From: Cyanophora paradoxa CCMP329
Taxonomy: Eukaryota > Plantae > Glaucophyta
Assembly (NCBI GenBank): GCA_004431415.1
Contig: QPMI01000516.1
Location: 1-64,000, forward strand
Length of the DNA stretch: 64,000 nt
Direction: 5' to 3'
Shown: in pieces, positions 8,481 through 51,600 of the stretch
Layout of the letters: every line of letters starts with the position of its first letter
Numbering within the stretch: the first letter of the stretch is position 1
The notes under the pieces: model-generated
What the model was told of the DNA's origin: nothing
What the model saw: only the letters and a program-made list of their open reading frames with translations
The model's database searches: none
Position numbers and translations under genes: made by a program

Positions 8481-8603
8481 TAATTGGTGCCGAATCCAAG
8501 CTTCTAATACCCCAGAGGCGGCCAACATACTGGTGCCAAAAAGACATGATTAATACCCTAAGACCTGAAATAAATGCTTACTACCCTAGTACCTGAAACG
8601 CGC

Positions 8604-8678
8604 ACACATAGGGATACCCCTGATCCAAGCCTGTAGGCCGAAGGCCGGAGGGCTTGGATCAGGGGTATCCCTATGTGT
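8604..8678. repeat. Perfect 28-bp inverted repeat at the left boundary of the GC-rich virus
   Basis: ACACATAGGGATACCCCTGATCCAAGCC (8604-8631) and its reverse complement (8651-8678); GGCC-GAA-GGCC in the loop. Confidence 0.95.
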
Positions 8679-9403
8679 TGCGTAACGCGTACATGGGGCC
8701 CACCCTCCGTCTGCGTCGCAGCGACGGAACGGAGACGGATTGGTTCGCAGACGGTGTAGGGTCCCTGAACTCTGCTTACGACAGACGTGGCACGGCCTAC
8801 GCCGCCTGGATCTCGGGGTATACAGCCGCGGTTGTAACACTATACGACCAGAGTGGAAGCAATCGAAATGCAACCCAAAGCGTGGAATCCAGGCAGCCGC
8901 AGTACTCAGGGGGCAGGGCGACCTTTGCATTCAACAATGGAACGTTCCTTGACGTACCCTACTCAGCGGCGCTGAATACGTCGACCTTTTCCTGTGTCTG
9001 TTCATGTCTCTACACAACCTCACAAGCGGAATACAGGTCCCCCCTCACCAACCGTGCATCTGGTGCTTCAAGGTATGGATACATGATCTATCGCACGCCT
9101 ACCTCAACTTGGCAGTACTGGGCGGCTATGCCCAGCAGTTGGAATCAACTCGGAACCACTGCTGCGGTCATCAATACAAAGTTCAAAATTGGGGTCGGGT
9201 ACAATGGGGCCTCGCATTCTATCACGATCAACGGCACAACGCAAACCGTGGCTGGTTCCTATGTCCAGAACTCTACGAATCCCTTCCGCATAGGAGCCAT
9301 ATCGGACGGCACTCCCGGGGGATTCTGGGACGGCTGGGTGGACGACATCATGTGCTTCAACGCGGCCATCGGGGATACGAACGCTGTCCACGCTCTCATG
9401 TAG
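8654..9403 (+). CDS. LamG/concanavalin A-like virion protein, apparently 5'-truncated
   Basis: LRNAYMGPTLRLRRSDG..LYDQSG.NRNATQ N-terminal module; FRIGA..FWDGWVDDIMCFN LamG C-terminus; annotated start is a TTG inside the hairpin arm. Confidence 0.7.
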   Translation: MDQGYPYVLRNAYMGPTLRLRRSDGTETDWFADGVGSLNSAYDRRGTAYAAWISGYTAAVVTLYDQSGSNRNATQSVESRQPQYSGGRATFAFNNGTFLDVPYSAALNTSTFSCVCSCLYTTSQAEYRSPLTNRASGASRYGYMIYRTPTSTWQYWAAMPSSWNQLGTTAAVINTKFKIGVGYNGASHSITINGTTQTVAGSYVQNSTNPFRIGAISDGTPGGFWDGWVDDIMCFNAAIGDTNAVHALM

Positions 9404-9407
9404 GCTG

Positions 9408-10244
9408 CTATGCAGCGCAAATCAGCTCCCCCGTCCACATCGTCGGGCTTCCACCGGGCCACGCATACATGGTGCCTGAACTCACGTAGATGCTCACGTT
9501 GGTCCCGGCTGATAGGTATAGGATCGCATTTAGGGTCAGGTACTTTGGTGATGCATCAGTTGTTGCATCGGCGCTTTGGTAAATGTTGATTCCGCCTGGA
9601 TACTGCCCGTTCACATGCAGCTCAACGCCAGCTTCGGCTGTGGTCTTTGATGTCTGCCCCGTGAAGAGAAATCTGTACAGTCCCGTAACGGGGACAACAA
9701 ACTTTCCGGTACTGAAGTCACGAACATCCGGGGCAGAGCGCCCAGACCAGCCACTAAGGAAATCTTTGGTCCATTGTGTTATCTCACCTGGCCCGGAGAA
9801 GCTATCGGCGAGGCCCAAGCAAAACACAGGGCGGTTGGGCGTCTGGACGTTGCCAGTCAGCCTCAGATTGCCGTTCACCCTAAGGCCCCCCACAACATTC
9901 GCCCCTCCCCCCTGCACATACAGCGCCGCGTTCCCCTCCCCATCGGCAGTATTGTTAAAGGTCAGGGCGTTTGTGGTGTACCCGCTCCCGTCCCAGGCCC
10001 CGTTTGTCACCGTGAGCCTCTGCGTCCTCACGCGCCCCGGCACGGCCGATCCGCCCTCCCGCGTGCGCATCTTGTCGCAGCGCAGCTCGCCGACGCGGAC
10101 AAGGTCGGCCTCGGTGAAGGGGACGGCCGTGGCGTTGTAGGGGGCCTCGGTGGCCTGGTTGCCGAGGGTGGTCTCCTTAATCGTGTGATCGCCCTTGTGA
10201 TTCACGCTGGCAGCGTAGGTGAATAGAGGAACAGCAACAGACAT
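9408..10244 (-). CDS. Fibre-like protein with C-terminal C1q/TNF-like domain
   Basis: RPVF...FSTGKFVVPVTGLYRF...ILYLSAGTNVSI...WTGELI is a C1q pattern. Confidence 0.8.
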   Translation of the reverse strand: MSVAVPLFTYAASVNHKGDHTIKETTLGNQATEAPYNATAVPFTEADLVRVGELRCDKMRTREGGSAVPGRVRTQRLTVTNGAWDGSGYTTNALTFNNTADGEGNAALYVQGGGANVVGGLRVNGNLRLTGNVQTPNRPVFCLGLADSFSGPGEITQWTKDFLSGWSGRSAPDVRDFSTGKFVVPVTGLYRFLFTGQTSKTTAEAGVELHVNGQYPGGINIYQSADATTDASPKYLTLNAILYLSAGTNVSIYVSSGTMYAWPGGSPTMWTGELICAA

Positions 10245-10664
10245 TTTTGGATTGCATCAGAAAATCGATTACATAAGCAGCTTGCCGATCGCGGTCCAGT
10301 GAATGAAAAGCTGGACAATTTGGGTGGGTGTGACCGTCATTCTGGGCTGGAATCTCACTTTAACTGTAAAGCCAGTATGACTCACCGCCGTGACGTTGGT
10401 CCCGTAGAAATCGACATCCGTGCTGCCGCCAGGATTGATGTCGAACGAGGGGGTTACGTTAATAACCGGCGTCGGGTTTGCTGGGGTCCCCAATCCGCCT
10501 CCAGTGTCGTACGCCTGTCCGAATGTAATGTTGAACGTCACCGTGTATGTTGAATTGATGTTAAACTCCGTGTACGCAGCGTACGAGTGGAAGGACGTGC
10601 CGTGCGTTATGTACGCATCCATGTTCACGTTTCTGTGCCCGTGGCCGGTGAGCGAGTACTCTGT

Positions 10665-10793
10665 GTGACTGTGTGTAGAGGGGGGGAAGGTGAGAGGCTT
10701 CCCCGTAACTTGAGTTTCCCAGTCCACGTTGTGACTGTGAGTCGAGGGGGGGAAGGTGGCTGGCCTTCCCGTAACTTGAGTTTCCCAGTCCAC
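10665..10793. repeat. Tandem 66-bp coding repeat (VDWETQVTG.P.TFPPSTHSH x2)
   Basis: Near-identical units at 10665 and 10731. Confidence 0.9.
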
Positions 10794-11431
10794 GGTGATG
10801 TTCGACAAGTCGGGGGCCGTCCAGTCGCTGATTTCTGAGATGGTGTGCTGGTGATCTGCGTGGGGGTACGTGCTCGGCTTCCCCGTGATGTTACCCCACG
10901 CCCAAGTTGCTGGAATTGTCGGTATCGTCGGCCTCCCTTTTAGATCTTGGTACTCTCCTGTATGCGCCACGGCCGCCAGCTGCGGTACGGCGACGCCCAC
11001 GGTACTGATGGCCTGACTGGGCCCCGAGGGCACGTGCCACTCGTAGTTCTGCGCCGCAAACACGGGCTGACCGGGCGAGGGTGCCCAGTACTCGACGCCC
11101 TTGGCGATTGTTTTATTGTAGGGTGCCGCCGGTCTGTCCATCAATTTATCGACGTACCCCTTGGGCACGAGCCAGTTGGCCTTGGGGCTCTGCGTCGCCA
11201 CGCCGTTGTCGATGTAGGTGCCGTAATTTCGAAAGGCGCCCGGCTCCCACCACTCCTGCATCTGGAAGCGATCGGGCAGCTCGATGCGCGCGATGGTGCC
11301 GGGGAGGCGCACGATGCGCTTGTTTCCCATGTGGTAATCGCGCTCGTAGATGATCGCGTTGCCTGGCCCGCCGCCGCCGCCGATGGGCGGAAGGGGCAGG
11401 AGGGGCGGAAGGGGTGGGAGGGGCGGGATAG

Positions 11432-12293
11432 CTAAAATCTCTTGCATTAGCACACAACACAACTACAATGAGTTTCACATCGCCCAATAAATCTCTCCGA
11501 CTAGATACTATCGAGGACCGTCGTATGCTGTGCTTTAGAAAGTACAAAATGAACGAAAGGTTTGAAGGGTTCGTGTCTAGATATCTAGCTAAGGAGGTTT
11601 CTAACTAATACTAATGATGTGGAAGCTAGCTGTATCGATTTCTAAACCAACCTAAACTCCCGGCTACGAGGTCCTATCTCTACAAAAGACTCCCAATCAT
11701 GGTATGTCCGCCGCCAGCGCTGCCCAAGGGCCTCGCCGCGCCGTGTGCCAGGCTCCTCGCCAGCCCCAGTAGATTGGGCTACTGGCCGCCTCCTGCCGTC
11801 GCCTCCGCCGCCTCCATTTGTTGGTGTTGCGTCCTCCGGCCCCGCCCCAGACCGCAATCCCCCAGTGTCTCCCTCTAGCGCGGGCGCGCCCTCTGTGTGC
11901 CCACGCCCCAAGCATACCTGTTCGTATGGTCGTATACTTGCATGGCCGCTGAAGCCCGGACCCAGCCGTAGTCGTCTGGCGGGCAGCTCAGGTGTGAGAG
12001 GGCTAGGGTTTCCCCGCCTTGGTGGCGGGACTCGAGGGCACCGCACTCCCTGCAGCGTTCCCGCTGCCGGGGCTCCGGATCCGCGCGCTTCCTGCGAGCG
12101 TTGCCAGCCGTATCGTCAGGCGGCGCGTCGGCCTCGCGCCCGCGCGCCTCAGTGCGCTTCGCCTTGGCGCGACGTTCTTTCATGACCTTCGTGATCCCGC
12201 ACGCCTTCTCCCACTCCGCGTACGCCTGGCATCTGGCGGCCCACGTTTTATGGGCCTGCTCGCCTATGGCCGTCGTCAGCTTGCGCACGACCT
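11432..12293 (-). mobile_element. 5'-truncated non-LTR-retrotransposon-like insertion flanked by a 38-bp direct duplication
   Basis: 11394-11431 equals 12294-12331 with one mismatch. The insert holds an ORF tail (KTWAARC.AYAEWEK...CRECG...H) followed by AT-rich non-coding DNA. Confidence 0.65.
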
Positions 12294-15200
12294 GGGCAGG
12301 AGGAGCGGAAGGGGTGGGAGGGGCGGGATAGGGGGGATGGGGGGAATGGGGGGGATGGGCGGCAGGCCGGGCGGGCTGAAGGAGGGCGGGCTGGGAGGGG
12401 AGGGTACGCCGCCCGGGCCCGAGGGGGGGTTGGGGGCCGTGGGCGGCGAGATGGGGGGGTTGCGCTGTGGCGGGGGCGGGCCCTGGCTCGTGGGAGGGCC
12501 GGGCTTGGGCGTCTCGGGGGCGATCTTCGGGGCCTGGAATCCCTTGAAGAGATCCTTGACGAAATCCGTGATGCGCGGTCCCAGAAACTCCCAGAGCTTC
12601 GAGAGGATCAAGTCGACCACGATTCCGATCGCGGTCGAGATCGCCACCTCCTTTGCAATCTGCGCGACCTGATCCCTGGTGACGTACCCCCCGTTGGCGA
12701 TCGCCTGCATGACGAGCCCACCGATAAAATCCTGTAGCCCCGACGAGACGGTACCGGCGATCAGCATCTTCGTCATGCTGGGGATTTCGCGCTTCAGCTG
12801 CTGCCAGGCGCTGTCCGTCTCCGCGCGAATCTTATCCTTCTTCGAGCTCACCTCCGAGCGCGCGTAGTCTTCCAGCTCTTGGCGCGCCCTCCTGTTCATC
12901 TCGGCGATTTCCTTGTCCAGCAGGCTCCAGTCTCCCGGCTTCACCTGCCCCCTGCCGTAAGGCGCAAGCACGTTCCTTAGGATGGTGTTTGCGTCGCCCA
13001 CGACTCGCGCGGCAGGCGGCTCGCGGCTCCGGTCGATCGGCAGGAAGCCCGGCGCGGGGCGCAGGCCGCTCCCGCCCACCGGCTCGGCCCCCCGCACGTC
13101 CAGGGCGTCGGGGTCCGGGGCGTTGCGCTGGACGGGCAGGTTGGCGGGCGACGGGCGCAGGCCCCAGCCCCCCGCCGGCTCAAACCGGTCGGGCCTCAGG
13201 TCGCCGCGCGAGACGCTGACGGGCCGGCCCGTCCGCCTGTCTCGCATGACGAGGGGCGCGCGGGGTACAATGTCCCGGGGCAGGCCTACCCCCGCCGCCG
13301 AGTCGACGGAGCTCCGCACCGAGCCGACGCTCGAGGGAGGTGGGCTCGGCCTGACCTGGGGCGGGGGCGGGTTGCGGATGACGGTGCGCGCCGTGCCATC
13401 GCCCGCCTCTCCGCTCGCGATGGACTGCACGTCGGCTCGCTGGCTGTATGGCAGAGTGGGCGCATCGCTGTAAGGGATTGTAGAAGCATCGCTCGCATCG
13501 CTTCTCGCAACGCTCACGGCGCTCCTGTTGTCGTAGGGGATGGTAGGGGGGATTGTGGTCGAGGCGGCCGTCGTCTCTCGGGGGGCGCGCGCCTGGCCCA
13601 TGAACTCCTGCAGCCTGCGCTCGGCCTCCAGGCGGGCCTGGCCCGACGTCCACGAGTTGCCCGACAGGCCGCTGTAGCCCGAGATCTGCGAGCGGGGGCT
13701 GGGGGGCGGCAGGTCGGTGGCGGGGCCGGGGATGGAGCCCGCGAGGGAGGGGGCGGAGGGGGGCCTTGCCGGGGGGATGGCGAGGGCCTGGTTTGCCCTG
13801 CGCATCTCCGGATCGGAGGTATCGGAGGGTGGCGCACCGGGGCCGGACCTCACGGAGAAGCCGGAGGAGATGGAGCCGGAGGAGAGGCGCGAAAGGGAGG
13901 GGGGCCCGCTGGAGGGGAGGCCGCTGGGAGGGGCGGGGTCGGAGCCGACGACGGAGGGGCTGGGCGGGGGCCTCGAGGGCTGCGCGCCGCGGGCCAGCGT
14001 GTCGTTTGCCTGCCGAAATTCGGGGTCGGAGGTGTCGGAGAAGGCGCCCGCAATCTCGGATGCCACGGACGCGACGTCGGAGCCGCCCTGCAGGTTGGGG
14101 AGGGTGTGGTAGCGCGTATCGGGATTCATGCGCCCCGTCGGCCCCGGGAGCCCAGGCGCCGGTGCCTGGCCCGCCGACGAGGCCCTGGAGCCCGCCCTGG
14201 AGGCCGCCCTGAGCGCCTGCTGGTAGTCTCGCAGGGCCGCCCGCTCCTCAGGCCTTCTGCGCCGCCTCAGCTCGGCCTCCGCCGCCTGCAGCCTGCGCCT
14301 GTCCATCTCCGCGTTGACGCGCTGCATCTCGGGGTCGGATGTATCGGAGAACCCTGCGGAGGAGGCCGCACCCGACTCCACGCGCCCGTACCCCGAGCGC
14401 TGGCTCCCCAGCGAGCCGTTGTCGAAGCCCGGGGCCGCGGACGACCGCGACTCGGTCACGAAGCTCACCTCGCTCGGCGAGACGGGCCGCGAGTGGAAGC
14501 TCACGACGCTGCCCACGTCCGAGGGCGGGCGGATGGCCTCCTGTATCATGAGCCCCTGCGGCCGCTGCCCCTGCAGTATGTTCCGCACGGCCGTCGTGTT
14601 GATTGCGCGTGGGTCGAAGCCCCACACGCCCGCCCCCATCTCGCGCAAGAAGCGCCGCGAGTAATCCGAGTCCTCCCAGAGGAAATCCGAGAAGGCCCGG
14701 TTCTCCGCCCCGAAGAACGTGTCGTCGAGGCGCAGGTTTTGGTTGTTGCGCGCCAGCCGCAGCATCCCCTCCGTCCAGGCATCCTCGCCCGCCCTCGTGA
14801 GCCGCGCGTCGGGCAGTATCCGAATCCACTCCGCCACGTTGTTCTGGCGCTCGTACTCGGCCTGCGTCCTGCGCGCCCCCTCCAGCAGCTCGTCCGCCCG
14901 CCTGCCCCAGCGCTCCTGCTCGCGTGGCGTAAAGGAGGGGTCCCTGATGGGGTTCTCCGCGAAGAACCGCGCCACGTACCCCGCCTGCGCGTCGCCCTGC
15001 GTCCAGGCGCGCCCGCTCCTCGTCCAGCGTCCGCTGCTGTGCGGGTCCCGGCCTTGCGAAAATTCCCTCCAGCCGCTCCCGCTCCTGCCTCTGCGTCAGG
15101 GCGCGGTACTCCGCCGCCTCGCGCGCCCGCCGCTCCTGTTCCATCTGGTGCGTGATCTGCTGCTCGTCCCGCGACAGCTGCATGCGCCTGTTGAAATCCT

Positions 15201-16165
15201 CCTGCTCCGCGCGCTCCCTTCGCGCCACCCTGTCCATGTCGTCGATCAGGCCGCCCGCGTTCGCGTAGAGCCCGCCGACGCGCGCCCCCTCGTCCGCCAA
15301 AGCCGCGTCCCTCCTATCCCTCTGCGCCTGCCGCCAGCCGTTGACGGCCGTGCGCGCCCTTCGCCCCAGGGCCCCGGCCATGAGCGCCGCGCCCAGGCCT
15401 CCCAGGCCCCCGAGCGCGAGCCCCGCGAGAATGCGCGCCAGCTCGTCCGCCCCTCCGTTGCCGGGCGGGCCCTGCCGCCCCTCCGGCCCCATCGGCCCCG
15501 GGCTCGTGCCCGGCGGCTTCTCGTCCCCGATGTCGGTTCGCGTGAGGGCGCGGATGTCGATGCCGAATTTATCGAACCAGTTGAGGAACTCCTTGCGGTC
15601 CCTGGCGTACTCGTTGGACTCGTAGTACGTGCGCGAGAGGGGGTCCGCCTGCCAGTAGAATTCGCGGAGGGGGCCCGCGAAGCGCGTGATGGCGTTCTGC
15701 GCCCCCACGTTCGTGCCCGTCGGCCTCAGGCTCCTGCTTACCACGTTGTTCGCGCCCAGGTTTAGCGTCTCCTGCAGCGCCACGTCCCCCGAGATGGCCC
15801 CCCACCTCAGGCTCACGATCTCGGAGCCGTCCCCGTGGAATTTATCCACCCACGCGTCCGCGATTCGATCGTCCGCCTTCCCTAGATCCGTCTGCCTGGT
15901 GTCGCGCGGAATAATCGCAACGTGCGTCGGCGAGTGGTTGTAATCGCGCAGGCTGAGGTACTGTCCCCCGGACCCGCCCGCGATCATCTGTATGTACTGC
16001 GCCAGCGAGAGCAGGGCACCGTCAATGAGAAGGCTCACGGACTTGGCCCGCAGATCTCGCACGTGCAGCACGCCGTCCACCGCGATGGCGCCGTTCAGCA
16101 CCTCGTCCAGCGGCGGTAAGAGCGATCTCCAGTCGTCCATCTTGCAGCGCCCAGAGAAAAAATAA

Positions 16166-18060: not shown

Positions 18061-20040
18061 TTAACCGCGGCCCCTGCCCCTTCCGCGCCCCTTGCCCTTT
18101 CCGCGCCCGCGGCCCAGCCCTCCGATCTCGGCGGCCTGCGGCGCGAAGCGCGGATCGTCCGAGGGGGCGGACTCCGTCTGGAAGATGGAGAAGAGGTAGC
18201 CGTCCGTGTTGTTGTCGGTGTTATTCTGGTTGCGCGCGTGCGACCACTGCTTCAGCAGGTCGCGCCGCTGCGTCTCGGGCAGCGTCTTCGTGAGGTACTC
18301 CTGCAGCCGCCCGCCGTAATTTTCCTCCGGAATCAGCTCGGCGAGGATGGTGGGCGGGTCTTTTCCCATGCCGATTCTCCCTCGGTTCAGGTCGTCGATG
18401 AGCTCCGCGTTCTGCAGGATTCTCTCCGCGTCCTGCCCCGCCTCTTGCTGCAGCTGCTCCACCAGCCTCCTTCCGGCCTCCGCGAATTTGCCGGCCAGAA
18501 TTTCGCCCAGCCTCTCGTAGACGGTTGTCGTACCCGGCTCCTTTTCCTTGAGTACCACGGCCCAATCGTACTTTGCCCAGAGCACCTGCAGGTTCGATAT
18601 GTGGTCGATCGTGACGAGCACGTGGGCGTGCAGGCAGCCGTCGGTCGGCCCCACTTCCACGCCCCCCTGCACGCGAATTCCGATGATGGCGTTTGCAAAG
18701 GTATCGTCCTTGTACTTGCCGTCCTCTTCCTTTAAATTAAATCGAATGAACTTGTAGAATTCGGCGTCCGAGAGCACCTGGGCCAGGCTGCCGCGGAAGG
18801 CCTCCACCTCGAATTCTCTCGCGGCGCCCAGCCTCTTGTGTGTGTTGAAGAGCACCCAGTACCGCGACTGGCGCGCCTGTCGAATATCGTAGCGCGTGCT
18901 GCCGTCGGCGTTCTTTTTGTTGAGGATGAAAACCGAGCGGCCCGTCTCGTTGATTTCGGTGATGACCTTTTCGAGCGCCTCCAGCCCGTTGGCCCTCGCG
19001 GCCTGCAGCCCCGTTTTCGTCTTTTCTATGTTCTCCCTCACCTCCGTCGATTTCCTCAGGATCTCGTCGATCCTGCTCATGTCGGGCGCGGCGATATCCT
19101 GCTTCCTAATTTTCTCCTGGCCCGACCCCGGCGCGATGGTCGACTGGCCGAAGGCGGCGGCCATATCCTTGGCGGATTTCGAGGCCTTCGTCTTCGGGCC
19201 GCCCAGCACCGTCTGCGCCATCTGATTCTGCGCCTGCGCCGACACGGCCGTGGTGTCGCCCCTCTTGCGCCGCTGCAGGCCCAAATTCGCGAGGAGGCCG
19301 CGATCGTCCAGGAATCGGTAGCACTGCATGCAGAGCCACGAGTTCTTCGGGTACACCGGGGGCAGCTGCGCGGGCTTCTTGTCTTTGATCGGGGGGTACT
19401 TGTTTTTTGGCCTTTGCGCCTTCGCCCACTCGTTTGCCTTGTCGACCTTTTTCGCGTAATCGGCGTACGCGGCCTCCTTCTTCGCGGTCGCCTCCGCGAC
19501 GGCCTCCGCGGTGCCCTTTTTGCGGGGTATGCTCGGGATTTCGTACATGAGGCGCAGGCAGCGGTAGCAGACGGGCGGCGATTTTTGGGCGCTCTGGAAG
19601 GCGCGCGGGATGGCCCGCAGGCGCTCCTCGGGCAGCGCGTCGTAGAACTGCTTGCTGTGGATGCTCCAGAACGTGGCATCTTCGTAGTAGGCGTCGAGCG
19701 CCTTGGTTTCCGGTACCTGGACGCGCGTGATCGGATCCTTGAGAATTTTAACTACATCCGGGATGCCCTTCTGCATTTCGATGATCTGCCCGTTTTCGCC
19801 CTCGACCAGCACGGCCCGCTTTGGAATTTCGACTATGGGCATATCGAGCTCGTTGTATTTCTTTTCCTTCATCTTCTTCCCCCGCTTCCCCTTTGGCTTC
19901 GGCTCATCCTCGGCCTCTTCCTCGTCTACCTCTTCCTCTGATTCCGACTCTGGCTTCTCCTCCTCTTCCTCGTACGCCGACCCCTCGGATTCGCTCTCCG
20001 GCTTCTTCTTGCGGCCTCGGCGCTTCGGAGGCATTTTCAT
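18061..20040 (-). CDS. Long HUH-superfamily endonuclease with charged N-terminus and CxxC...CxxC Zn finger
   Basis: Motif I YWVLFNTH, motif II EVGPTDGCLHAHVLV, motif III YLTK; CYRC and CMQC. Confidence 0.8.
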   Translation of the reverse strand: MKMPPKRRGRKKKPESESEGSAYEEEEEKPESESEEEVDEEEAEDEPKPKGKRGKKMKEKKYNELDMPIVEIPKRAVLVEGENGQIIEMQKGIPDVVKILKDPITRVQVPETKALDAYYEDATFWSIHSKQFYDALPEERLRAIPRAFQSAQKSPPVCYRCLRLMYEIPSIPRKKGTAEAVAEATAKKEAAYADYAKKVDKANEWAKAQRPKNKYPPIKDKKPAQLPPVYPKNSWLCMQCYRFLDDRGLLANLGLQRRKRGDTTAVSAQAQNQMAQTVLGGPKTKASKSAKDMAAAFGQSTIAPGSGQEKIRKQDIAAPDMSRIDEILRKSTEVRENIEKTKTGLQAARANGLEALEKVITEINETGRSVFILNKKNADGSTRYDIRQARQSRYWVLFNTHKRLGAAREFEVEAFRGSLAQVLSDAEFYKFIRFNLKEEDGKYKDDTFANAIIGIRVQGGVEVGPTDGCLHAHVLVTIDHISNLQVLWAKYDWAVVLKEKEPGTTTVYERLGEILAGKFAEAGRRLVEQLQQEAGQDAERILQNAELIDDLNRGRIGMGKDPPTILAELIPEENYGGRLQEYLTKTLPETQRRDLLKQWSHARNQNNTDNNTDGYLFSIFQTESAPSDDPRFAPQAAEIGGLGRGRGKGKGRGRGRGRG

Positions 20041-20057
20041 TGGCTACAAGAAAAAAT

Positions 20058-23775: not shown

Positions 23776-23812
23776 TTTACCCCCTTCATTCAGATTTTCT
23801 TGTGACCTCGGA

Positions 23813-34936: not shown

Positions 34937-35007
34937 CGAAGTTTCAAGTTGCCCTTCGTTCGCAGCCTCCGGGCGCCTCCCACAATTTTCCAAGGTACCC
35001 AGCAAGC

Positions 35008-41174: not shown

Positions 41175-42868
41175 TCAGAATTTTGGGGTGGGGAGGGCGC
41201 ACCGGCCGGCTCGGGCCGGCCGCCTTGGGGCCGCCGCCTCCATCTGCTCGCCGAGATCGCGCCGCGCCGCCGGGGCGGGCGCGTCCTCCTTCTCGAACTT
41301 GAGGTTGATGTAGGCGACCTTGCCCTTGCCCTTGCCCTTCGCCTGGGCCTGGGCCTGGGCCACGCGCATGGCGCGCGCGAGGCCCTCCGCCGTGATCTTG
41401 CTAACTCCGGCCCCGTCGCCGGAGGCGGAGGCCGTCGCCTCGCCGATCGCCGCCTGGAAGGCCGCGGCCATCGCCCGGCCGGCGCGCGGCAGGCTCCGCG
41501 CCCGCTCGAGCTCCTCCTCCGTGAAGTCCAGCGCCCGGGCCGCGGCGGCGGCCTCGGCGTCGCGCTCCTCCTCGGAATCCGAGCCGGAATCCGAGGACTC
41601 CGTGGCCGCGAGCATGGGGCGGGGGCGGGAGGCGGCGGCGGCGGCGGCGGCGGCCGCCTTGTCGAAGACGGGGACGAAGAAGGCGAGGGCGAGGGTGCGC
41701 CGCGGCACCACGTACTTCACGGCGCCGTGGATCATGGGGCGCCCGTGCGAGTCCGGCATCGAGCACCGCCGGATGACCTGCGAGGGGGTTTAAATGGCAT
41801 CTAAATAGTCTAAATAGCATCTAAATAGTCTAAATAGCATCTAAATAGCATCCAAATAGAAACGGCACACCTGCACGCGGTCGCCGATGGTGACGCCGGG
41901 CACCTCGAACTCCGGAACCAGGTCGAAGGCGCAGATGCCCTGGCGCCCGTGGCGGTCCCGGCACGTCCGGCAGGCCGCCTCCAGCACGATGCGGATGGCG
42001 TAGGCGTCGGTGAGGACGCCGGTGTCCGGCCGCTCGCCCCAGACCGCCGAGCTCTCGTGGCGCGTGATGAAGTCGCGGCTGTTCTGCTTGATGCAGCGCA
42101 CCTCGATGCCCATGATGCCCTTCGCCAGCATCTGCGGGCCGGCGGGGGTCGGCGGGGAGGGGCGGCCGCGGCTGCGCGGGCGGCTGGGGCGCACCTCGGG
42201 CTTGTAGGCCGGGTCCGAGCTGAGCACCAGCAGCCAGAGCAGGTGCCCGGCCGCCTCCGCCATGCGGTTGAAGTAGAACTCCTCCGGGCCCGTCAGCAGG
42301 CCAATCGTGCGCCACTCGCCCTTGGCGATGTGCCGGGGCACGGCGCCCATGAGCAGCCGCAGGCGCTGCGCCGCGAACAGCCGGCGGGCGTCGGCATCGC
42401 GCCCGGGCTTCGGCTTGCTCGGCGTGTCGAAGTTCTCCTCCGTCATGTTCAGCGCCGCGTGCATCGCCCGCACGTCCGCGTCCTGCGATGCGCCGCGGCG
42501 CCTCAGCCGCTGCGAGCGCAGAGAGAAAGAGGCAGCGAGCACCTCCGCGAGCCGCAGCCGCGACAGGACGGAGTCGATGGAGAACTGCACCGACGGGCCG
42601 GGGGCGCCCTCGAGGTTCAAGGTCCGCGCCGCGGCCAGCTTGCGCTTGCGCTCGGCCAGCTCGGTCTTGCGCAGCACATCCTTGCTGTTCGGGCTGAACT
42701 GCATGCCGTCCTCCAGCGCCCGGGCCTGCGCCTCCTTTGCCTGGTCGCTGATGCCGGCCTCGAAGACCGTCCAATCGATGCCAAAGCTGTCGCCGATGCA
42801 GAGAACGTCGTACAGCGTGTTCCTCGCCAGCTTAGCCGGGATCTCCGGAGGGAGCGCGAGCCGAGACA
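41175..42868 (-). CDS. Intron-containing hypothetical protein (possibly the N-terminal part of the helicase gene)
   Basis: Introns 42132-42194 and 41778-41870 join the ORFs in frame; a 34-nt GTGCGC..AG intron at 41169-41202 would fuse it in frame to ATG 41146. Confidence 0.65.
41791..41859. repeat. CTAAATAG(CAT/T) minisatellite inside a predicted intron
   Basis: About seven tandem TAAATAG-type units. Confidence 0.85.
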
Positions 42869-43209: not shown

Positions 43210-45729
43210 ATGCAGGCGGCGACCTTCCGCTCGTGCGCGAAGCAGCAGCAGCCCGGCGAGCAGGACAGCATAGCCCGCGATCTCGGCAGCCTGTCAGCGG
43301 AGGAGGCGCTCAACGCGATGACCTACGATAGCGTGTTCAACTCGGCCGGCGTGCCGCGCTTCGAGCCGTTCGGCGGGCTGAAGAAGATCCAGAACACGGA
43401 CGGCCACCCGAAGCACTTGAAGACCAAGGGCCAGTTCACGCCGGTTAATAAGTTCAACGAGGTTCGCGGTTTCGCCCGCACCGCTTCGGCCCCGGCTCAC
43501 ATGCCCCGGCTCGCGTGCCCCGCGCGCAGATCGTGCCTTACAGCATTCACGAGCTGCCGGAGTATGTGAAGGCGAAGTACGGCTTCACGCACGGCGATGT
43601 GGCGCTGTTGCTGATGTCCGACAATGCGGCGGCGGGCTGCTTCAACAGCATCGCGCTCCATCGCGATTTCCATCCGCGCGCGATCTTCTCCGGCACTCCG
43701 GAGCAGAAGGAGTTCCTCGCGGACCTCAAATCCGGCAGCGGCGGCGCCCACGGGGTGAGGGCCCTTCCCTGCGCTCGCGTGCCCGCGCTTGCTCACGCGC
43801 GGGCCGCCGCAGCTCTTGATCGCGCGGGATCAGTGCCTGGCGTCGGTGACGGAGAAGGAGAAGGCCAGCCCGTCCGGCCTCGGCGTTCGGTGCGATTACG
43901 TCATCGTCACCAAGCGCATCAACCCGACGTACGCCAAGAAGTACGACCTCAACTTCGTCTACGTGAAGGAGGGGCCGCCGGCCTCGCAGTACACCGTCAC
44001 CGTCCAGGCCGGCATCTGCGCCGGTGAGACCATCCAAGGCGCGTACCACGGCGTCGGCACGCTCCCGTCCGGCGGCTTCTTCGACGTCGTTGATCACATG
44101 TTCCTCTCCTGCGCCGATGACATTTACGTGCGCGAGAGCCCGCCCTTTCCCCTTTCCCCTGCCCCTGCGCGCGCTAAGGTCGCGTCCGCAGGTCGGAGAG
44201 AACCCGAGCGCGGAGAGCCCGCTGGGCTACGCGTACTGGCTGGTCAGCGTGCAGAAGGTGCTCTCCTGCGCGGCCCTTCGGAAGTACGCCAGCGTCTGCG
44301 ACTCCGGCATGCGGCCCCAGCTCCAGCTTCTCGTGGATCAGGGCCGGAGCGACGAGGCCCGCCAGCGCCACCGCGATCTCGCGCGGGCGGCCGTGCTGAA
44401 GCTGGAGGAGGTTCTGCGCGAGGGCCACCCAAACGGGCCGGCCCGCGCCCGTGAGATCCTCTCGGTGGCCATCTCCGTGATCGTCGGCGAGCTCTCGCAC
44501 ACGGTCCGCCGCCGCCCCGCTTAGCCCGCCTCTCCTCCCTGACCCCGGGCCCTCGGAGCGCAGGAGGAGTCGGACGTTCTCACGGCGCGGGCGGACGAGT
44601 TCCAGCGCCAGGCGGAGAAGATCAAGTGCTGGTACGAGAAGGTGAAGAAGGCGGAGGAGACGGACCTGCGCGACTGGGGCAGCAAGAGCGGCGACGCCGA
44701 ATTCGACCGCGACAAGCTCAAGCGCGTCTTCTACTGGATGCGCATCTGCGCCAAGCTGGAGGCGCTGATGGACGAGTGGCACATCGAGGGCGTCCGTCTG
44801 GCGAAGGCGATGATCGCCATGGAGTGGGGCCACGGCCACCCGGCGCGCAAGGAGTGCAGCATGCTGGCCAAGGAGATCGGCCGCCGGGCCGCTACATCAA
44901 GGAGGTGGCCTACGGTATCGAATGTGCGTCCGCCCCGCCCTTGGCCTGCGCCCCGCCCTTGGCCTGCGCCCCGCGCTCTCCCCGCTCACCCCTCTCCCGC
45001 AGTTACCATCCCGCTCGTCCAATTCTTCCAGCGCGAGTTTGTGCTGATCCAGGCCTCCATCATCAAGATCGGGTCGCTCTCCGCCAAGGAGGTGGACGAG
45101 GCAAGGGACGAGGGCCAGGCGGAGGCGGAGGCGCGCTGGGACGATGCGGCGTTCAGCGCCGTCTGGGGCGTCGGGGACAACGCGCTCTCGCCCCCGCCCC
45201 GTTCGGCTTCAGCGGGCGGCCCGCGCTGGCGTTCGACGAGCACGGCCTCCCCGAGCTGGCGGAGGCGGACGCCGTCGGCTTCAACTGGGCGACGTTCGAG
45301 GCCCGCATCGACGAGAAGGCGAAGGAGGCGCAGATGCGGCTGCTGGAGGAGGGCCTCGTCCCGGCGCCGGTGCCCGCGCCCTTCCCCCTTCCTCTCCTCC
45401 TCGGCCCCTCTCACCGCCTCCTCCAGCCCCCGGCGTCCTCGGCTCCGGCGTCCTCGGCTCCGGCGTCCTTGGCTCCGGCGTCCTTGGCTCCGGCGCCCTC
45501 GGCCCCGGCCCTCTGCCCCACCTACGGAGAGAGGTGTGCCCACCGCGCCGATTGCGCCCTCAACGGCTCCCACCTCCTGCCCGCCAAGAAGGCCCGCCTC
45601 GGCCTCTTCTCACCCCACCCTCTCAGCCCGGTGAGTGACTCTGAATCGGAGGGCTCGGAGGCCTATAGCACGCCCCGCGACCCCGACGCCCCGCCCCACA
45701 AGGCCGGCGCCTTCGGCTTCTGTGAGTGA
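43210..45729 (+). CDS. Intron-containing protein of unknown function (at least 5 introns)
   Basis: Introns 43462-43529, 43755-43812, 44128-44191, 44504-44563 and 44924-45002 link successive ORFs; apparent 1-nt indels at ~44880 and ~45190; 3' end uncertain. Confidence 0.7.
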
Positions 45730-46302
45730 CGCCCCCGCGCAGGCCCTCTCGGCGCCGCCCGTCGCCAACCGCGCCGCCTTCGTCCAGGTGAGTGCCCGGG
45801 CTGCCGCGAGTGGCGGCTCGAGAACTTCTCGGCTCAGGTCCCCGCCACGCAGCAGGCCGGCGCGATCCCGGCCTCGCCGCCCGTGACCGTCGACGTCGAG
45901 GGCGGTATGTTCGAGATGGAGCTGGAGCCGGCGCCCTCGCAGGCCCTCGCCACCCAGGGCTCGGCCCCGGGCTCGCCGCCGCCGTCCCAGCCCTCCCTCC
46001 CCTGGTGCACGCCAACTCCAACATCTTCGAGGGCTGCTGAGGGCCCTGAAACGGTGCGCGCAGGCCCGTCCCGCCCTCCCAGAGCAAGTGGTCCACAACG
46101 CCATAGTGGACGCCATGTGGGATAACAGGGGCCGCCTCCCCCACCCCTTCCGCTACGTCTCTATGGCCCTCCGCGGCCTCGCCTTCCCGCCCCCCTGCAC
46201 CGAGCAGCTCAACCAAATCCTGCGCGGTCTGATTCATTACAGACTCGCCTACCCAGCCTGGGCCTGAGCTACACCAAGCTACGGTGAGTCCGACCAAGAG
46301 AC

Positions 46303-46354
46303 GTGTCCGGACCCTCCCTACTTTCTTTATAGATTATTGGAAAGGTCCGGACAC
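46303..46354. terminator. Hairpin with AT-rich loop between convergent genes
   Basis: GTGTCCGGACC ... GGTCCGGACAC abutting the YqaJ stop codon. Confidence 0.5.
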
Positions 46355-47010
46355 TAGAGGAGGGCGTACGACTTAAACTCGCGCAGCGCCGCCTGCTCCT
46401 CGCTGAGGTTCTCTGACTTCATTCGATCGCTGTAGGGCTCGGGCGGCGTGCCCTCCTTGACGTGCATCCAAAATAGATGTAAGCACTTCCTCATGAGCTC
46501 GATGTACCTCTCGTCGCGCCTGACGTACCACGTTTGCACGCGCAGAGGAGTGAAGCAAAAAAGTTCGGCCCACTCGCGGCCCGTGATGTCCAGAAGTCCT
46601 TGTAGTTGGGGCATGTAATAAGTAGGAACTTTATCGTACAGTTCGCCCTTGTACGGGCATTTCACCTCTAAAATTCTATCATTTCCTATAAGTCCGTCGG
46701 GACTACCGGCGAGGAACGGCATTTCTTTATGTTCGTGCAGTCCAGTATGTTTCACGTCCACGTTATTGTTCAGTGCCTTGTAGATAGAGACCGCGAGGGG
46801 CTCATAGTCATGCCCATAGGTTAGGGCAGGGTTGTCAAAGTTGTTTTCCTCCGCTATCCCGCTTAGCTCCGCCCAGAGGCGGGCCCTGGATTTCCAGGGA
46901 TTTATGCCGCACGCAGCCGCAAAGTTCGAGGCAGTTAGCTTTTCGCGGCGCGCCGCGTGCCACGCCGCGCTCCCCTGTTGCAAAGTCTCGCAATCTGTAT
47001 CGGTATGCAT
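46354..47010 (-). CDS. YqaJ/lambda-exonuclease family recombinase (PD-(D/E)XK)
   Basis: QGSAAWHAAR..LTAS, GHDYE, LAGSPDG, LEVKCP, YYMPQLQ. Confidence 0.93.
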   Translation of the reverse strand: MHTDTDCETLQQGSAAWHAARREKLTASNFAAACGINPWKSRARLWAELSGIAEENNFDNPALTYGHDYEPLAVSIYKALNNNVDVKHTGLHEHKEMPFLAGSPDGLIGNDRILEVKCPYKGELYDKVPTYYMPQLQGLLDITGREWAELFCFTPLRVQTWYVRRDERYIELMRKCLHLFWMHVKEGTPPEPYSDRMKSENLSEEQAALREFKSYALL

Positions 47011-47060
47011 AGCTTAGCCTCGCAGTGGCGTTTAGAATTTCTTGATGTGTGCAATTGCAA

Positions 47061-47758
47061 ATGTCCGATGCAGAGGAAGCGCCCAAGGACGTGATCGCAC
47101 AGTTCATAGATCAGGTCAAGGACCTTAGACGCTGGGTGGTAGAGCAGGCCTCGCGACCGAATCGACAGCGCCAACCCTGGCCGGTGCTAGAGCTGGCCCG
47201 GGCAGGGTGGCTAGACACGCATTACAACTCTGGCGGGGCCCTTTACGTTCGGAGCCACGACGAGGGCAGGATTATCGACGAGTTCAAGCGCATCTGGTTC
47301 GCCCTGGGCTCCAAGCTCAGCATACTCTCGACCCTCCCGGACCACATTCGCATGCAAATCCTCGAGTGGTACGCGAAGGCAAGGGACTCGCAATGGGACG
47401 ACGTAAATTTGCGCGACCTCTCGCGCTTGCGCTCGGCTGTGACGGCGTATGTCACAAACTATGATTATCACGTCAAAAAGCCCCAATTCGAAGTTGAGCC
47501 AATTCCGATGAATCTGGTACCCCTGGGATGGGAAGAGTACCCCGAGTACTCGTGGAACAGGGGCCTCAACCCCCGCGCCAGGCCCTGCCAGCCCCGCCCG
47601 CCCCACCGATAAACGGCCCCGCCCCGCGTGACGTCAGACGGGACATACGCGAATGGGAGGAGTGGAGCAACGACCCGAAGAACTGGCTACCCGGGGAGGC
47701 GGAGCTGCGCAAGCGCGCGAGGCTGATGCCCGGCGACAGGTACCCCGACCGCGAGTAG
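47061..47758 (+). CDS. Hypothetical protein, probable frameshift near 47590
   Basis: ORF 47061-47612 appears to continue in frame 47528-47758; divergent from YqaJ. Confidence 0.5.
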
Positions 47759-47795
47759 GGGGTACAGGTATAAATTCTCAGCGAGCCGCGAGCAA

Positions 47796-48521
47796 ATGTC
47801 GTACGGCGATCAGGAAGCATGGTTCAAGCTACACCGCCTCTTTCCTGATAAATTCGGCAATGCGCGCTACCCCCTCAACCTAATGACACGAGTCAACCGG
47901 CGGACCAGGGAATTCAAAATCGAAGTGTTTTCATCGTCCCCCGAGAGCGGCCGCTCCGCGGACAACGACTCCATGGCATGGTTATACGGCTTCGTCCAGC
48001 CTCGCGTCGGCAATAAGCCAGCCACCGTCGAAATAGAAAGCTACTACAACGATTACGGGCCGCAGGGGGGGTACGGGACGCCCGAGCAGAGGGATTCGAT
48101 GCGGGGGGCGGGCAAAATCCTGATGCGGGCCGCTGTAGACGCACTGCAGCGCTCCGGGCTCATTAGCTCGTCGGACCCGGGCGAGCACGCGGTGGAGCTC
48201 AGGGCCCTCCCGGACGCAGTGGAGTACTACGAAAGGGAATTGAGTCTGCGCAAGAGAGACCTCGCCTTTCTCACCTACACACCGTCCCTAACACCCATGG
48301 AGGGTACGGTGCAGAACATCATCGACAACACGTACAACGTGGCCGTTCGCTGGCGCAAAGCGGCGGCGGATCTCGTAAAGGGCAACTACAAGGACCTCGC
48401 AGACGAAGACAACCCCGTGGGGGAGTACATGGAGCTGGCAAGCGGGAGCATCGTACCCCGCCGGAGGCCCCCAAGGCCCGACCCCGACCTCGAGTGGGGA
48501 CCGTCGCACTTCGGCCAGTGA
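47796..48521 (+). CDS. GNAT-like acetyltransferase-fold protein
   Basis: MRGAGKILMRAAV acetyl-CoA loop; VELRA..AVEYYE. Confidence 0.5.
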   Translation: MSYGDQEAWFKLHRLFPDKFGNARYPLNLMTRVNRRTREFKIEVFSSSPESGRSADNDSMAWLYGFVQPRVGNKPATVEIESYYNDYGPQGGYGTPEQRDSMRGAGKILMRAAVDALQRSGLISSSDPGEHAVELRALPDAVEYYERELSLRKRDLAFLTYTPSLTPMEGTVQNIIDNTYNVAVRWRKAAADLVKGNYKDLADEDNPVGEYMELASGSIVPRRRPPRPDPDLEWGPSHFGQ

Positions 48522-48561
48522 GGGGGTACGGGTAGATATTCTCAGCGAGTCGCATTGCTCT

Positions 48562-48653
48562 TGTCCCGGGTCCCTGGAATCTTAATATAAATTTTCCGGG
48601 GACCCGGGACACTCCCGGTCAGACGATTCTTCAATTGGGGGTTCAATTGGGGG
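48562..48653. repeat. 18-bp stem hairpin with TCTTAATATAAATT loop, followed by tandem TTCAATTGGGGG x2
   Basis: Arms 48562-48579 / 48594-48611 (one mismatch); direct repeats 48630-48641 and 48642-48653. Confidence 0.9.
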
Positions 48654-51600
48654 TACAGAATTCAGTTAGAGCCTGAGCCTAGTCAGAGGCCGGGAGGGCC
48701 CCCCTGGGGGTACGTCGGCTGTTACTCCCCGCGTCGGTTAGTGCTAGCCCCCCTGTTAGTGCGGGGCGTACCTGATCGCAATATAACACCCAAACCTCCA
48801 TGACGCGTGACTCATGCAACCTCCGAGGGTTAACAATGCATTGACAGCGAAGGGGCAAGCTCGAGAGCTCGACCTTTGGCAAGAGCCCACCATATATATA
48901 GCTGACCAGCTGGCCCAGTGGATATGGCCATGGATTCCGATTCCGCTGACCAGCCGCTGGCTGGCAGAACCCCAGCGGGTCAGCCTAGCGAGACGGTCAA
49001 GATCTGAATCCGTGAAAGCAAGCCTGGCAAGCTTTAGTCGTCATATGCATATGCATGGTGTTGGACGCGTCGAACCGACTCGAACGCTGCGCGCGCGCGT
49101 GTGCCGGGCCCGCGGCCAGCAGTGCCCAGCACTAGTACTGCGCATGCCGCGAGTGCGCATGCGGCATGCATGCGCATAAAGCTGCATATATGCATGTGCA
49201 TGTGTTTGCGCTGTGCATGTGGCAGCGCGGCCGGCCGTAGTATCAATCCGTCCGTATACGTATACGCTGATCATGAGCCGTCTCCGAGTTTGTAAGCAGC
49301 CTCTGCAACCGCACGCGCGGCGCCCGGCAGCTGCAGCCTCTGTAGCTGGGCCCGCGGCCATGGCCATATGCATGGGCAATTGCAACCGCGGCCTGCCATC
49401 GGTATTGCCATTGCAACCGGTGCCAACCCCGCGCGGCCGGCGTCGGCATTCGCACCTGGACAGACGGCGGCAACACCCGCTACGAGCGCATATGCGCATG
49501 CGTGCGCATCAGGCATCAGGCCCAGATCATCCTTCGACGCGCATAACCTCGCGATCGATAGGAGCAGCGCGTACACACATATATATGGCAGCACCGGCTT
49601 TCCGCATGCTGCGGCCATCGCCTGCCGAGGCGGTGCATGCATGTGGACTAGTACTCGAGCCCGTGATCGGAGCGAGCTCGAGCACGCTCAGAAAGGGCGA
49701 CGCCAGCTTGCTATCCGGCCGCGGCCAGCGCCGGCGCCGGCGCCCGCCTCGAGCTCGCAATCGGATGCGGCAGCCGAGGATTTCGAATTCCGCGGCCGCT
49801 AGTGCTGCATTTCGAATTCGCACGCAGCCGAATCCAGCACGCGCATACGTGCGCGCGGTACTGTCCACCGGCTCCGCGGCCGGCGCCATCGCCGCCTTTC
49901 TCGTAGTGGCAGTTGCCCTCGCGCTGCTCCCGCGGACCCTCGGTCAGGGTACGTTTCTGTACATGTGCCATTAATATTGCTTCCGGATTCGGCCTGCCGC
50001 CCCCTACGTATGCCCATTTGCAATCCCTCCGCCCCTCCAACCTCCTTAAGCTTCCCCTGCCGCCCCCCCCCCTCCCCTCCTTCTCCCCCTGCCCCCTCCC
50101 CTGCCACCCCCCCCCCCCCCCCCCCGCCCCGCACCCCCCCCCCCCCCCCCTTTCGAATTCTTCCAACCATCCATATCCTCCGGCCCCCGCCCCCGCCGGG
50201 CCCCCGGCCCTTCCTTGATCTCCTCTAGACAACGACATGCATTTTACTGATGCAGATCGCTTCCCAACGCATGCGCAGCCGGTCTCGACCCCTCGCCGGA
50301 GGCCTACAGCGTATCGTTCAAAGCGCACACGCCGCCTGCCTTTGGACGCCGCATGAGGGCGGATTTGGTCTTCTTTCGCAACGCGAGCGGAAGCTCCAAA
50401 CTCCTGCTCATCGGCGGGGGCGTCGACGAGGCCTGGGTCTATGATATTGGCGCGTTCTGTTGGCACTTGAACCGAATCCAGCTCAGAAATTAATCATAAC
50501 GCCCGTGCGCAGGCGCTGACCGGTGGGAGCTGACACCCATGAAAGTCCCGGCGGGTTATGGCATCTCTTTGTACGACATCAAATGCATCTGGGATGAGGC
50601 GTCCAAGATATAGTGAAGCATTGTATTTTAATGGTTAGATGCATTACATCCTTCTAATCTTCTCGAAGTTGCACTGGAGCTCGAGGGGGCAGCATTCCTT
50701 TTGGAAACTGCTGGTATTGTTTCGGTATGATTTCTCATGATTAATAAGCAAACTCTATTGCCGTCTAACCTCTTCCCTCGCCTTTTTCTGCATTACCCGG
50801 GTGCAGAGACAGACTCTGGAGACTCAAGAATCCAATCGAGCAATCACTTCTGGTCCTTTCCAACAACGATGGACTTGGCTGGTATAGAAATGCTACCGCA
50901 CTCTATTCCCTTATTCGGCCGCAACGATCACTGTGCGTAGTACGTGCTGGCTCTGTTGCGAATTGAAGTGCAATTGCTACTTAACGATCAGCGATCGCGC
51001 GAGCTTCTGAATCTCCATTTTATATTTCGAAGTGCCAGTTTGCTGAGCTTTAAAACTCTGACGCGTTCCTGCATGCACAGGCCTAACGTATTACAACGGA
51101 AGTATCTATGTGCGTGGCTTTAAACAGACATGGATATATGCATCGATTTGTTTTTCAAATTGACCTACGTGTACTCCGACTCATCGCTCGACATTTGGCG
51201 ACCAGGCCGCTGCAGGAACGGCCGGAGGGGACTGCTATTCATTTTCAGCGTGCCCAAATTTCGAGTCCCTCACATCACAGCCGGGTTCAGGCTACCGAAA
51301 CGATCTCGTCCGGTGCTACGGATCGCGATCGCGATTTCGTCTTATGTCCTCTTATATTTATTGTTTGGAGGGGGACATCCTCGCCCTTCGACAGATACTC
51401 CATCGCAAATCGCATTTGGACTACCGAAATTTCGCTCTGGCAATCGACAATGACGCCACGAAAATTCCCGATATGCGCTCGGAGTGGTGCGTGCTTACAA
51501 ACCGCAACCGTATACTGTGACTGTATTACTGACGCTCGTTAACTCGCATCGCCCGAGCAGGCAGTCGATTTTATATCGCAGCCGGCTTAAACCTAAATAC

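Follow-up and report, generated by a model that had tools for sequence, protein, structure and literature searches.

The first 64,000 nucleotides of contig QPMI01000516.1 of the freshwater glaucophyte alga Cyanophora paradoxa CCMP329 (the window) contain a mriyavirus-like element of ~40.3 kb, which extends from ~8.6 kb, its presumed left end, to ~48.9 kb, a right end taken from read contigs. The window consists of three compositional blocks. The 1-8.4 kb block has 43% GC and an observed/expected (o/e) CpG ratio of 0.32, the 8.6-48.9 kb block has 58-70% GC and a ratio of about 1.0-1.1 (64% and 1.09 in the comparison with the left block), and the third block is the host flank. The element encodes a double jelly-roll major capsid protein (MCP), an A32 packaging ATPase, VLTF3, a RuvC resolvase, two HUH endonucleases, an SSB, a PD-(D/E)XK exonuclease and an SF3 helicase (Table 1). 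A Pfam scan of 52 open reading frames (ORFs) of the window found no polymerase or integrase among those inside 8.6-48.9 kb.

The right end was located with short-read contigs. One contig at single-copy level (48862-50050, depth 166) continues into the host flank, a second one diverges past 48870, and the bin depth drops from 4157 to 229. Together the start at 48862 and the divergence after 48870 place the end at ~48.87-48.94 kb. The host flank stays at a single-copy depth of 166-180 up to 52.9 kb. A preliminary description had listed the same markers, and each gene was recovered where it had been placed, by Pfam, profile or Atlas matches. Its reading as a mriyavirus-like set lacking polymerase and integrase, embedded in a eukaryotic genome and followed by intron-rich host DNA, is borne out by the Pfam scan, by the contig that crosses the right end and by the kinase gene of the single-copy flank. 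Of the extent 8600..48700 that it gave, the ~40-kb size stands and the right end has moved; the helicase is present, as one multi-exon gene and not as a single ORF. It missed the ~20-30 copies, the introns in two genes, and that the left flank is another viral element.

Table 1. Features of the window, with the intron-like segments of contig L188 in its own coordinates
Feature	Position	Strand	Basis
Polinton-like element adjoining the mriyavirus-like element and separate from it	1-8480		Pfam PriCT_2, rve, AdoMet_dc
Primase-helicase pieces (Polinton-like neighbour)	1177-3002	-	Pfam PriCT_2
Protein-primed PolB-like ORF, intact-looking (Polinton-like neighbour)	3442-6537	+	motifs read by eye
rve integrase (Polinton-like neighbour)	6549-7919	+	Pfam rve
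AdoMet decarboxylase (Polinton-like neighbour)	7967-8365	+	Pfam AdoMet_dc
Hairpin at end of Polinton-like neighbour	8389-8481
Perfect 28-bp hairpin, likely left end of element	8604-8678		z -9.6 vs shuffles
Fibre/accessory structural gene	8693-9403	+	PHROG structural/tail matches in 8693-11447 block
C1q/TNF jelly-roll, minor capsid candidate	9408-10244	-	Pfam C1q 5e-5
Tail-fibre-like gene	10269-11447	-	PHROG structural/tail matches in 8693-11447 block
Large gene, no named family, two overlapping ORFs (frameshift)	12276-16140	-	ORFs
HUH_long, C-terminal HUH endonuclease domain	18061-20040	-	motifs I-III; Atlas Rep_OBD/Viral_Rep 0.90-0.92
HUH endonuclease, one frameshift	20058-20899	-	motifs I-III
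VLTF3 late transcription factor, four frame-shifted pieces	21120-21947	+	Pfam Pox_VLTF3, gamadvirus cluster c2
A32 packaging ATPase, intact	22705-23775 (ORF 22705-24111)	-	Pox_A32
RuvC/A22 resolvase	~23832-24289 (ORF 23264-24289)	+	Pfam Pox_A22 6.5e-7; gamadvirus c13 5e-16
Mriya_1-like protein (named by gene order)	25965-27899	+	gamadvirus c4 5e-12
Double jelly-roll MCP, intact	27942-29324	+	Pfam Capsid_N 2.5e-7
Mriya_51-like (named by gene order)	29412-30521	+	c7 9e-8
PEV_20-like (named by gene order)	30544-30873	+	c10 0.003, weak
Mriya_48 (named by gene order)	30912-31715	+	c9 1e-32; DUF5767
SSB (PEV_26-like; named by gene order, Yutin Table 1)	31769-32551	-	gamadvirus c3 1e-26
Candidate replication origin	33634-34955		palindrome z -40
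SF3 helicase gene, ~1,500 aa, nine predicted GT-AG introns	42869 to ~37565	-	D5/DUF5906 Atlas 0.95-0.97 on spliced paralog model
Intron gene without family match, eight predicted introns	43210-46060	+	RNA joints
YqaJ-like PD-(D/E)XK exonuclease	46354-47010	-	Pfam 7e-29; c1 7e-45
Two genes of right-end module, no named family	47061-48521	+	paralogs on other contigs
Right boundary zone, multi-copy element to single-copy host DNA	48870-48936		contig depth
Intron-rich receptor-like kinase gene, host flank	49700-61200	+	Pkinase 8.5e-6 on one exon
L188 intron-like segments	3517-3751, 5578-5752, 978-1073

Introns in the helicase and a neighbouring gene

GT-AG introns interrupt the helicase gene and one of its neighbours and are spliced like those of host genes. 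Read contigs came from one DNA run (X1) and from three RNA-type runs of three studies, the RNA nature of which is guessed. There were 182 joints in total. Of the 15 shown, seven are bounded by GT and AG, turn up in at least two of the three RNA-type runs and are covered at depth 0 in the DNA run. Two of the seven are in the helicase (42132-42194 and 41778-41870), four are in the 43.2-46.1 kb gene, and one (46479-46545, plus strand, GT-AG, spliced in three RNA-type runs) is antisense within YqaJ; the transcript of the 43210-46060 gene continues antisense into YqaJ. Since the joints have no depth in the DNA run, the close copies of the element carry the introns as well. Four exons of the 43210-46060 gene were searched and gave no family match.

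With predicted introns 4-9 removed, the helicase reads through 1,005 codons without a stop, and over 797 aa this frame shares 90% identity with a paralog model; the spliced helicase domain is D5/SF3-like (Atlas 0.97). Retaining intron 5, 6, 7 or 9 brings in a stop; retaining 4 or 8 does not. The predicted intron 39329-39390 splits the Walker A motif between GQSGT and GKST. This junction is continuous in 20/20 paralog models and two other core junctions are continuous in 14/20. The paralog-model support for introns 4, 5 and 9 is 1/20, 1/20 and 0/20, and the last acceptor and the frame of the tail could not be placed. The structural genes, on the other side, are continuous ORFs, 27 hand-picked genes covering 90% of 8.7-33.5 kb. 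The two intron genes also share a short motif (42705-42791 and 45268-45354; 74% DNA identity, ~50% protein identity over 30 aa), which may point to a domain in common or to an interaction.

Intron-like segments are also found in marine gamadvirus-like contigs. In the 38.8-kb contig L188 and its eight metagenome relatives (L190-L197, one of them identical in protein) the helicase ORF is flanked by two GT..AG segments that are lower in GC and rich in stops. Their lengths are out of frame, 175, 176 or 198 nt in 9/9 contigs for one and 235 or 236 nt in 8/8 for the other. Their removal keeps the frame, and the exon between them varies only in multiples of three (seven contigs measured). A third GT..AG segment, of 96-100 nt, lies in the first gene of 5/7 marine contigs tested. 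Frameshifts in SF3_hel2 genes were noted by Yutin et al. 2024 (PMC11253617); judged from these segments, the published frameshifts may be introns.

Spliced introns are positive evidence of nuclear transcription, and the nuclear stage that the preliminary description had proposed thus gains support from the sequence. Introns are known in large DNA viruses with a nuclear stage, among them a punuivirus, mirusviruses and a skiavirus. The punuivirus that is a giant endogenous viral element of Chlamydomonas (10.64898/2026.10.09.758095) is alike in having host-style intron genes together with virion genes behind a viral promoter motif. It is, however, a giant virus of 506 genes for which reactivation was shown, whereas the Cyanophora element has 40 kb and no polymerase, and its gene content points to HUH replication.

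Copies, host and classification

About 20-30 integrated copies are present in the Cyanophora paradoxa genome. All 15 clusters of MCP homologues in a set of 5.8 billion are eukaryotic gene models labelled Cyanophora paradoxa, and the window's own proteins fall in the same clusters. MCP gene models occur on 29 named contigs beyond the window's own, a count of names that redundant contigs may inflate, and a helicase exon matches 20 models on 20 contigs. In run X1 the long element contigs have a depth of 3,212-3,532 as against 166-180 for the host, about 18-21-fold, contig depth being a rough measure. The MCPs form at least three subfamilies, and 19 of the 32 fetched sequences (the window's own included) are full-length, with 52-100% identity.

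The gene order is retained on other contigs. One has C1q as g14242, ATPase g14254, MCP g14259, Mriya_48 g14262 and helicase g14272, and another has the 47.8-kb gene as g11455, helicase 11458, SSB 11465 and MCP 11469. C1q paralogs lie 10-12 gene numbers away from the ATPase on two other contigs, and on three other contigs a paralog of the 47796-48521 gene is three gene numbers away from the helicase. From these matching gene numbers the repeated unit spans at least 9.4 to 48.5 kb; no permuted order was seen among the other contigs compared. At the right-end module, position 46287 is joined to 48562 on opposite strands in contigs of the DNA run and two RNA-type runs (46287-48611), with hairpins at both join sites. 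In many copies the YqaJ module may lie inverted or in another place; alternatively, the joins may be hairpin mis-mapping.

A false join between host contigs and a virus that was free or persistent in the culture is very improbable. The junction evidence does come from contigs and not from raw reads and bears on the right boundary, which at most ~30-70 letters overlap, and the high depth could be episomal. Such a mis-join is nevertheless hard to square with an independent short-read run in which a single-copy contig leads from 48862 into host DNA, with 16 DNA runs that contain 75-80% of the words of 44-53 kb, with ~30 diverged copies that fit a depth of ~20x, and with the embedded regions reported in a preprint (10.1101/2025.04.19.649669). 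Close relatives were found neither in IMG/VR by MCP, MCP alignment or ATPase nor in JGI metagenomes by an alignment of the lineage ATPases. Two ATPases 83-90% identical to the Cyanophora lineage, P0132 (ENA, 3.3-kb contig) and P0135 (Logan, 8.2-kb contig), may come from free viruses or from other glaucophyte genomes.

The claim that an integrated copy identifies a host was overstated. Endogenous mriyaviruses had been described from haptophytes (10.1101/2022.07.28.501842; PMC12480563), and a 2026 preprint mentions regions related to Mriyaviricetes in an assembly from Glaucocystophyceae, in one sentence and a figure, introns not being considered there (10.1101/2025.04.19.649669); with these reports the integrated copy identifies no new host group. 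The Glaucocystophyceae regions, embedded and mriyavirus-like, very likely are the same element family; the preprint text available gives no copy structure, promoter, origin or expression, and its supplements may hold more. The endogenous Yaravirus-like viruses of Phaeocystis (PMC12480563; Phaglo-G, 10.1101/2022.07.28.501842) are likewise integrated relatives of the Pleurochrysis endemic viruses (PEVs) and yaravirus in algal genomes. They are 47-54 kb long and differ in their haptophyte hosts and in ORFs called with a prokaryotic tool, and the parts of the text and supplements consulted report no introns.

For classification, 106 loci were fetched with an ATPase alignment and the ATPase of Pleurochrysis endemic virus 2 (PEV2), and their ORFs were clustered into 34 profiles, which were named by matching the order of clusters to the PEV2 gene order in Table 1 of PMC11253617. 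The window matches the gamadvirus profiles of ATPase, PDDEXK, VLTF3, SSB, Mriya_1, Mriya_51, MCP, Mriya_48 and RuvC, and that of PEV_20 weakly. The Mriya_50 profile (c12) gave no match at E<=1. VLTF2 (c16), the PEV_22 minor capsid protein (c5) and PEV_27 (c6) gave no meaningful match among ORFs and spliced products, where divergence could hide them. Pox_VLTF3 matches three consecutive pieces of VLTF3 (profile positions 52-168) and the gamadvirus profile all four; by BLAST, the adjoining ORF 21948-22292 has a matching ORF in 26 loci. HUH_long matches the gamadvirus-like HUH of L188 (BLAST 4e-9). The helicase resembles that of L188 in size and layout and did not align with it in a single comparison. 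The SSB is 30% identical to gamadvirus ORFs and had no significant match in a PDB sequence search. For the 12276-16140 gene neither ORF matched Pfam, and the one ORF scanned against PHROG had no match.

The ATPase is 49% identical to that of PEV2 (AUD57306.1), and many of the sequences next closest to it are on contigs of 34-45 kb. An ATPase tree of 68 rows was made in quick mode from a subsample of 22 gamadvirus-like loci, 14 loci of nucleocytoplasmic large DNA viruses (NCLDVs) and 25 matches, with the NCLDV loci L079 and L080 as outgroup seeds. It was built without Yaraviridae or Zoravirus rows, and the program warns of long-branch attraction. The six lineage ATPases group together (98); their branch is long and lies outside the 47-row gamadvirus-like group (85), on the gamadvirus-like side of the split from one NCLDV family (Shimodaira-Hasegawa-like approximate likelihood ratio test 100). 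The MCP is very divergent: in a set of 1.84 billion representatives its best outside match has E 9e-12, and of 83 distant matches 77 score NCLDV-like. All nine host MCPs score slightly higher with the gamadvirus profile than with the NCLDV one; in the reverse search NCLDV rows come out first, and a profile comparison by hhalign gave 97.7% vs 96.4%. A structural model of the MCP (pLDDT 80), built on an NCLDV-rich alignment, matches NCLDV capsids. The ATPase, grouping with gamadvirus-like rows, stands apart from the one NCLDV family in the tree, and the MCP profile ranks were mixed.

Traits of Mriyaviricetes that are present include the 35-45 kb size, the A32 grouping, VLTF3, HUH motifs I-III, RuvC, PD-(D/E)XK, the SF3 helicase, Mriya_1, Mriya_48, Mriya_51 and the lack of a DNA or RNA polymerase among the scanned ORFs of the element. 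The 'Gamadviridae' traits HUH_long, SSB (PEV_26) and a PEV_20-like gene (E 0.003 only) are present also, and the ATPase branches outside the gamadvirus-like group. By these comparisons of sequence the element is a member of Mriyaviricetes, a deep lineage nearest 'Gamadviridae' and not placed within it. Assignment to a Polinton-like virus or Zoravirus-type group was rejected: those groups have 15-30 kb, an rve or YR integrase and terminal repeats, whereas the element has 40 kb, VLTF3, no integrase inside and no terminal inverted repeat (TIR).

'Gamadviridae' (Pleurochrysis sp. endemic viruses, NDDVs; PMC11253617) are alike in the ~40 kb size and the gene set. Gene order is partly common (Mriya_1-MCP; c7-c10-c9; ATPase convergent with VLTF3), as are the upstream motif and the iteron palindrome with ANTANTAC repeats described below. 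However, the sampled gamadviruses are 61-80% identical to the PEV2 ATPase as against 49% for the Cyanophora element on its long outside branch, the MCP is barely alignable to the gamadvirus MCP (16%), the host is a glaucophyte, and the available part of PMC11253617 does not describe introns.

Promoter motif, candidate origin and ends of the element

A WWTTYY/TTTTY pattern with the core TTTCTRA lies 10-48 nt upstream of 32/38 intronless genes, 0/2 intron genes and 57/778 other ATGs. In gamadvirus loci it precedes 308/570 gene starts vs 2,454/22,801 background ATGs, and the top upstream 6-mers are TTCTGA, TTTCTG and TTTTCT. CAGGTGA repeats are clustered upstream of VLTF3 (20974-21035) and around the 32.6-34 kb genes (32632-33963), two of which are without TTTCT; they are a possible second promoter class.

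The central palindrome has inverted arms of 127 bp (34484-34610/34810-34936), each with three 15-bp iteron-like repeats, and a partial third arm at 33634-33734. The arms contain TGACGT, a bZIP-type site. The AT-rich spacer between the arms has 18 of the window's 36 matches to ANTANTAC (5.6 expected), which we take to be the nonamer consensus of CRESS-DNA (single-stranded, circular DNA encoding Rep) virus origins. In L192, L195 and L196 all seven ANTANTAC matches fall within 45 nt just upstream of a palindrome made up of 13-bp repeats, and a further set of repeats stands 100 nt beyond. The iteron palindrome beside ANTANTAC repeats is a candidate HUH origin. HUH origins have a stem-loop, iteron and nonamer layout (PMC9872696). 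The CRESS-DNA virus origins are alike in the HUH Rep, SF3 helicase, stem-loop, iterons and nonamer-like repeats. Unlike those viruses, the element has a double-stranded genome of 40 kb, separate HUH and helicase genes, and arrays of nonamer-like repeats in place of one loop site. The palindrome was also considered as fused genome termini, an idea that lost weight because the like structure in L192, L195 and L196 is internal, between genes.

The left hairpin shares the 11-mer TAGGGATACCC with the arms of the central palindrome, where all its other occurrences lie (4 matches; 0.61 expected). No terminal inverted or direct repeats of the element were found at E<1e-3, the right-end stretches fold no better than shuffles, and no target-site duplication could be read at the ends. 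A Helitron-type end, a hairpin followed by CTAG on the minus strand (8586-8589), was rejected; the next base is not T and no second end to match it was found. On the right, the element ends ~0.8 kb upstream of the host kinase gene, which has one 2.5-kb exon of repeated extracellular domains without a Pfam match.

On the left, the Polinton-like neighbour is strongly depleted in CpG (o/e 0.32) and the mriyavirus-like element is not (1.09), which suggests different histories with host CpG methylation. Its ORF 3442-6537, to which Pfam gave no name, we take from its motifs to be PolB. The rve integrase and PolB of this neighbour could have moved the element, or both could be one composite element. 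They directly adjoin at ~8.5 kb, with the rve ORF 700 bp from the left hairpin, and Mriyavirus-related Polinton-like groups carry rve or YR integrases. Even so, Polinton help is improbable given the sharp contrast in GC and CpG and the lack of common repeats or TIRs enclosing both elements; moreover, HUH-based replication needs no PolB. The protein collection searched for other copies did not include the exact rve and PolB proteins of this neighbour.

Proposed life cycle

The window probably holds one of about 20-30 integrated copies of a mriyavirus-like, likely temperate nuclear virus, with the host splicing its helicase and neighbouring gene. As proviruses, the copies would lie dormant. As the entry step, host Pol II and the spliceosome would express the intron-bearing genes without viral factors. 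The HUH endonuclease would nick the ANTANTAC repeats next to the iteron palindrome, and HUH, SF3 helicase and SSB would carry out rolling-circle replication with a host polymerase, YqaJ and RuvC processing the products. VLTF3, together with the host polymerase, would fire the TTTCTRA promoters of the intronless structural genes, and A32 would fill the double jelly-roll capsid. Integration is the least sure step. Unit-length genomes with fixed ends, likely cut by HUH at the hairpins, may be attached to host DNA without an integrase, either by HUH itself or by end-joining of the host, a scheme that has slightly less than an even chance of being right.

Several points weigh against a functional virus of this kind. 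The evidence includes no virions, episomes or induction. Viral genes of C. paradoxa were reported to be methylated (10.1101/2025.04.15.648976). The lack of terminal repeats, of a readable target-site duplication and of a VLTF2 match also counts against it. The promoter pattern was fitted on the window itself, the structural module is called intronless by its continuous ORFs and not by RNA, and the RNA-type contigs may derive from any copy. Coverage by the RNA-type runs extends to YqaJ and the intronless genes at 33-37.6 kb, so genes other than the intron genes are expressed too. The nine marine contigs are near-identical (92-100%), thus one lineage, seen as sequence and perhaps themselves endogenous. 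Finally, frameshifts interrupt VLTF3 (three), HUH, the 12-16 kb gene, the helicase and the intron gene, and the short-read check reaches only the breaks right of 33 kb. A 1-nt helicase break at 41226 is absent from ~99% of the depth in run X1 (7,046/7,101) and is therefore likely a long-read assembly error; the frameshifts in VLTF3, HUH and helicase may at least partly be such errors.

The frameshifted core genes could instead mark relics in decay: a small number of old insertions, copied by host duplication or spread as passive repeats, would have gained introns once inserted and would no longer make virus. The 13 of 32 MCP sequences short of full length, the methylation, the host style of the intron ends and the lack of particle evidence fit such decay. 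It is unlikely, however, because intron-like segments are found in marine gamadvirus-like helicases too, the DNA run shows no intronless copy at the seven RNA joints, full-length MCPs are kept in three subfamilies, and the promoter motif and palindrome are intact; many truncated gene models perhaps reflect long-read indel errors.

Extension of the temperate nuclear reading to the gamadvirus-like mriyaviruses as a whole, a group on the deepest branch of the giant-virus phylum, with intron-bearing replication genes, a conserved late promoter, a CRESS-like HUH origin, repeated integrase-free integration and intact copies in Cyanophora paradoxa that would yield virions on induction, is doubtful and is put forward tentatively. 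A search of the literature on mriyaviruses, with most subscription journals outside it, found no description of introns, promoter or origin, and a term search of the available part of PMC11253617 gave 0 matches for intron, integrat-, endogen- and promoter. What appears to be new is the intron architecture with its counterpart in marine gamadviruses, together with the promoter and the candidate origin.

Among living viruses, mriyaviruses have been put forward as those nearest to the ancestor of giant viruses, and one of them is available in culture. That they live in the nucleus and replicate by rolling circle has so far been deduced only from genes that are missing or present. If introns are true also for the marine gamadviruses, the helicase N-termini described as "degrading" and the published "frameshifts" will have to be annotated anew. 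With a candidate origin and late promoter named, HUH nicking and the function of VLTF3 can be tested directly. With ~20-30 copies in a cultured model glaucophyte for which RNA and methylome data are public, the element offers a system for latency, induction and integrase-free integration.

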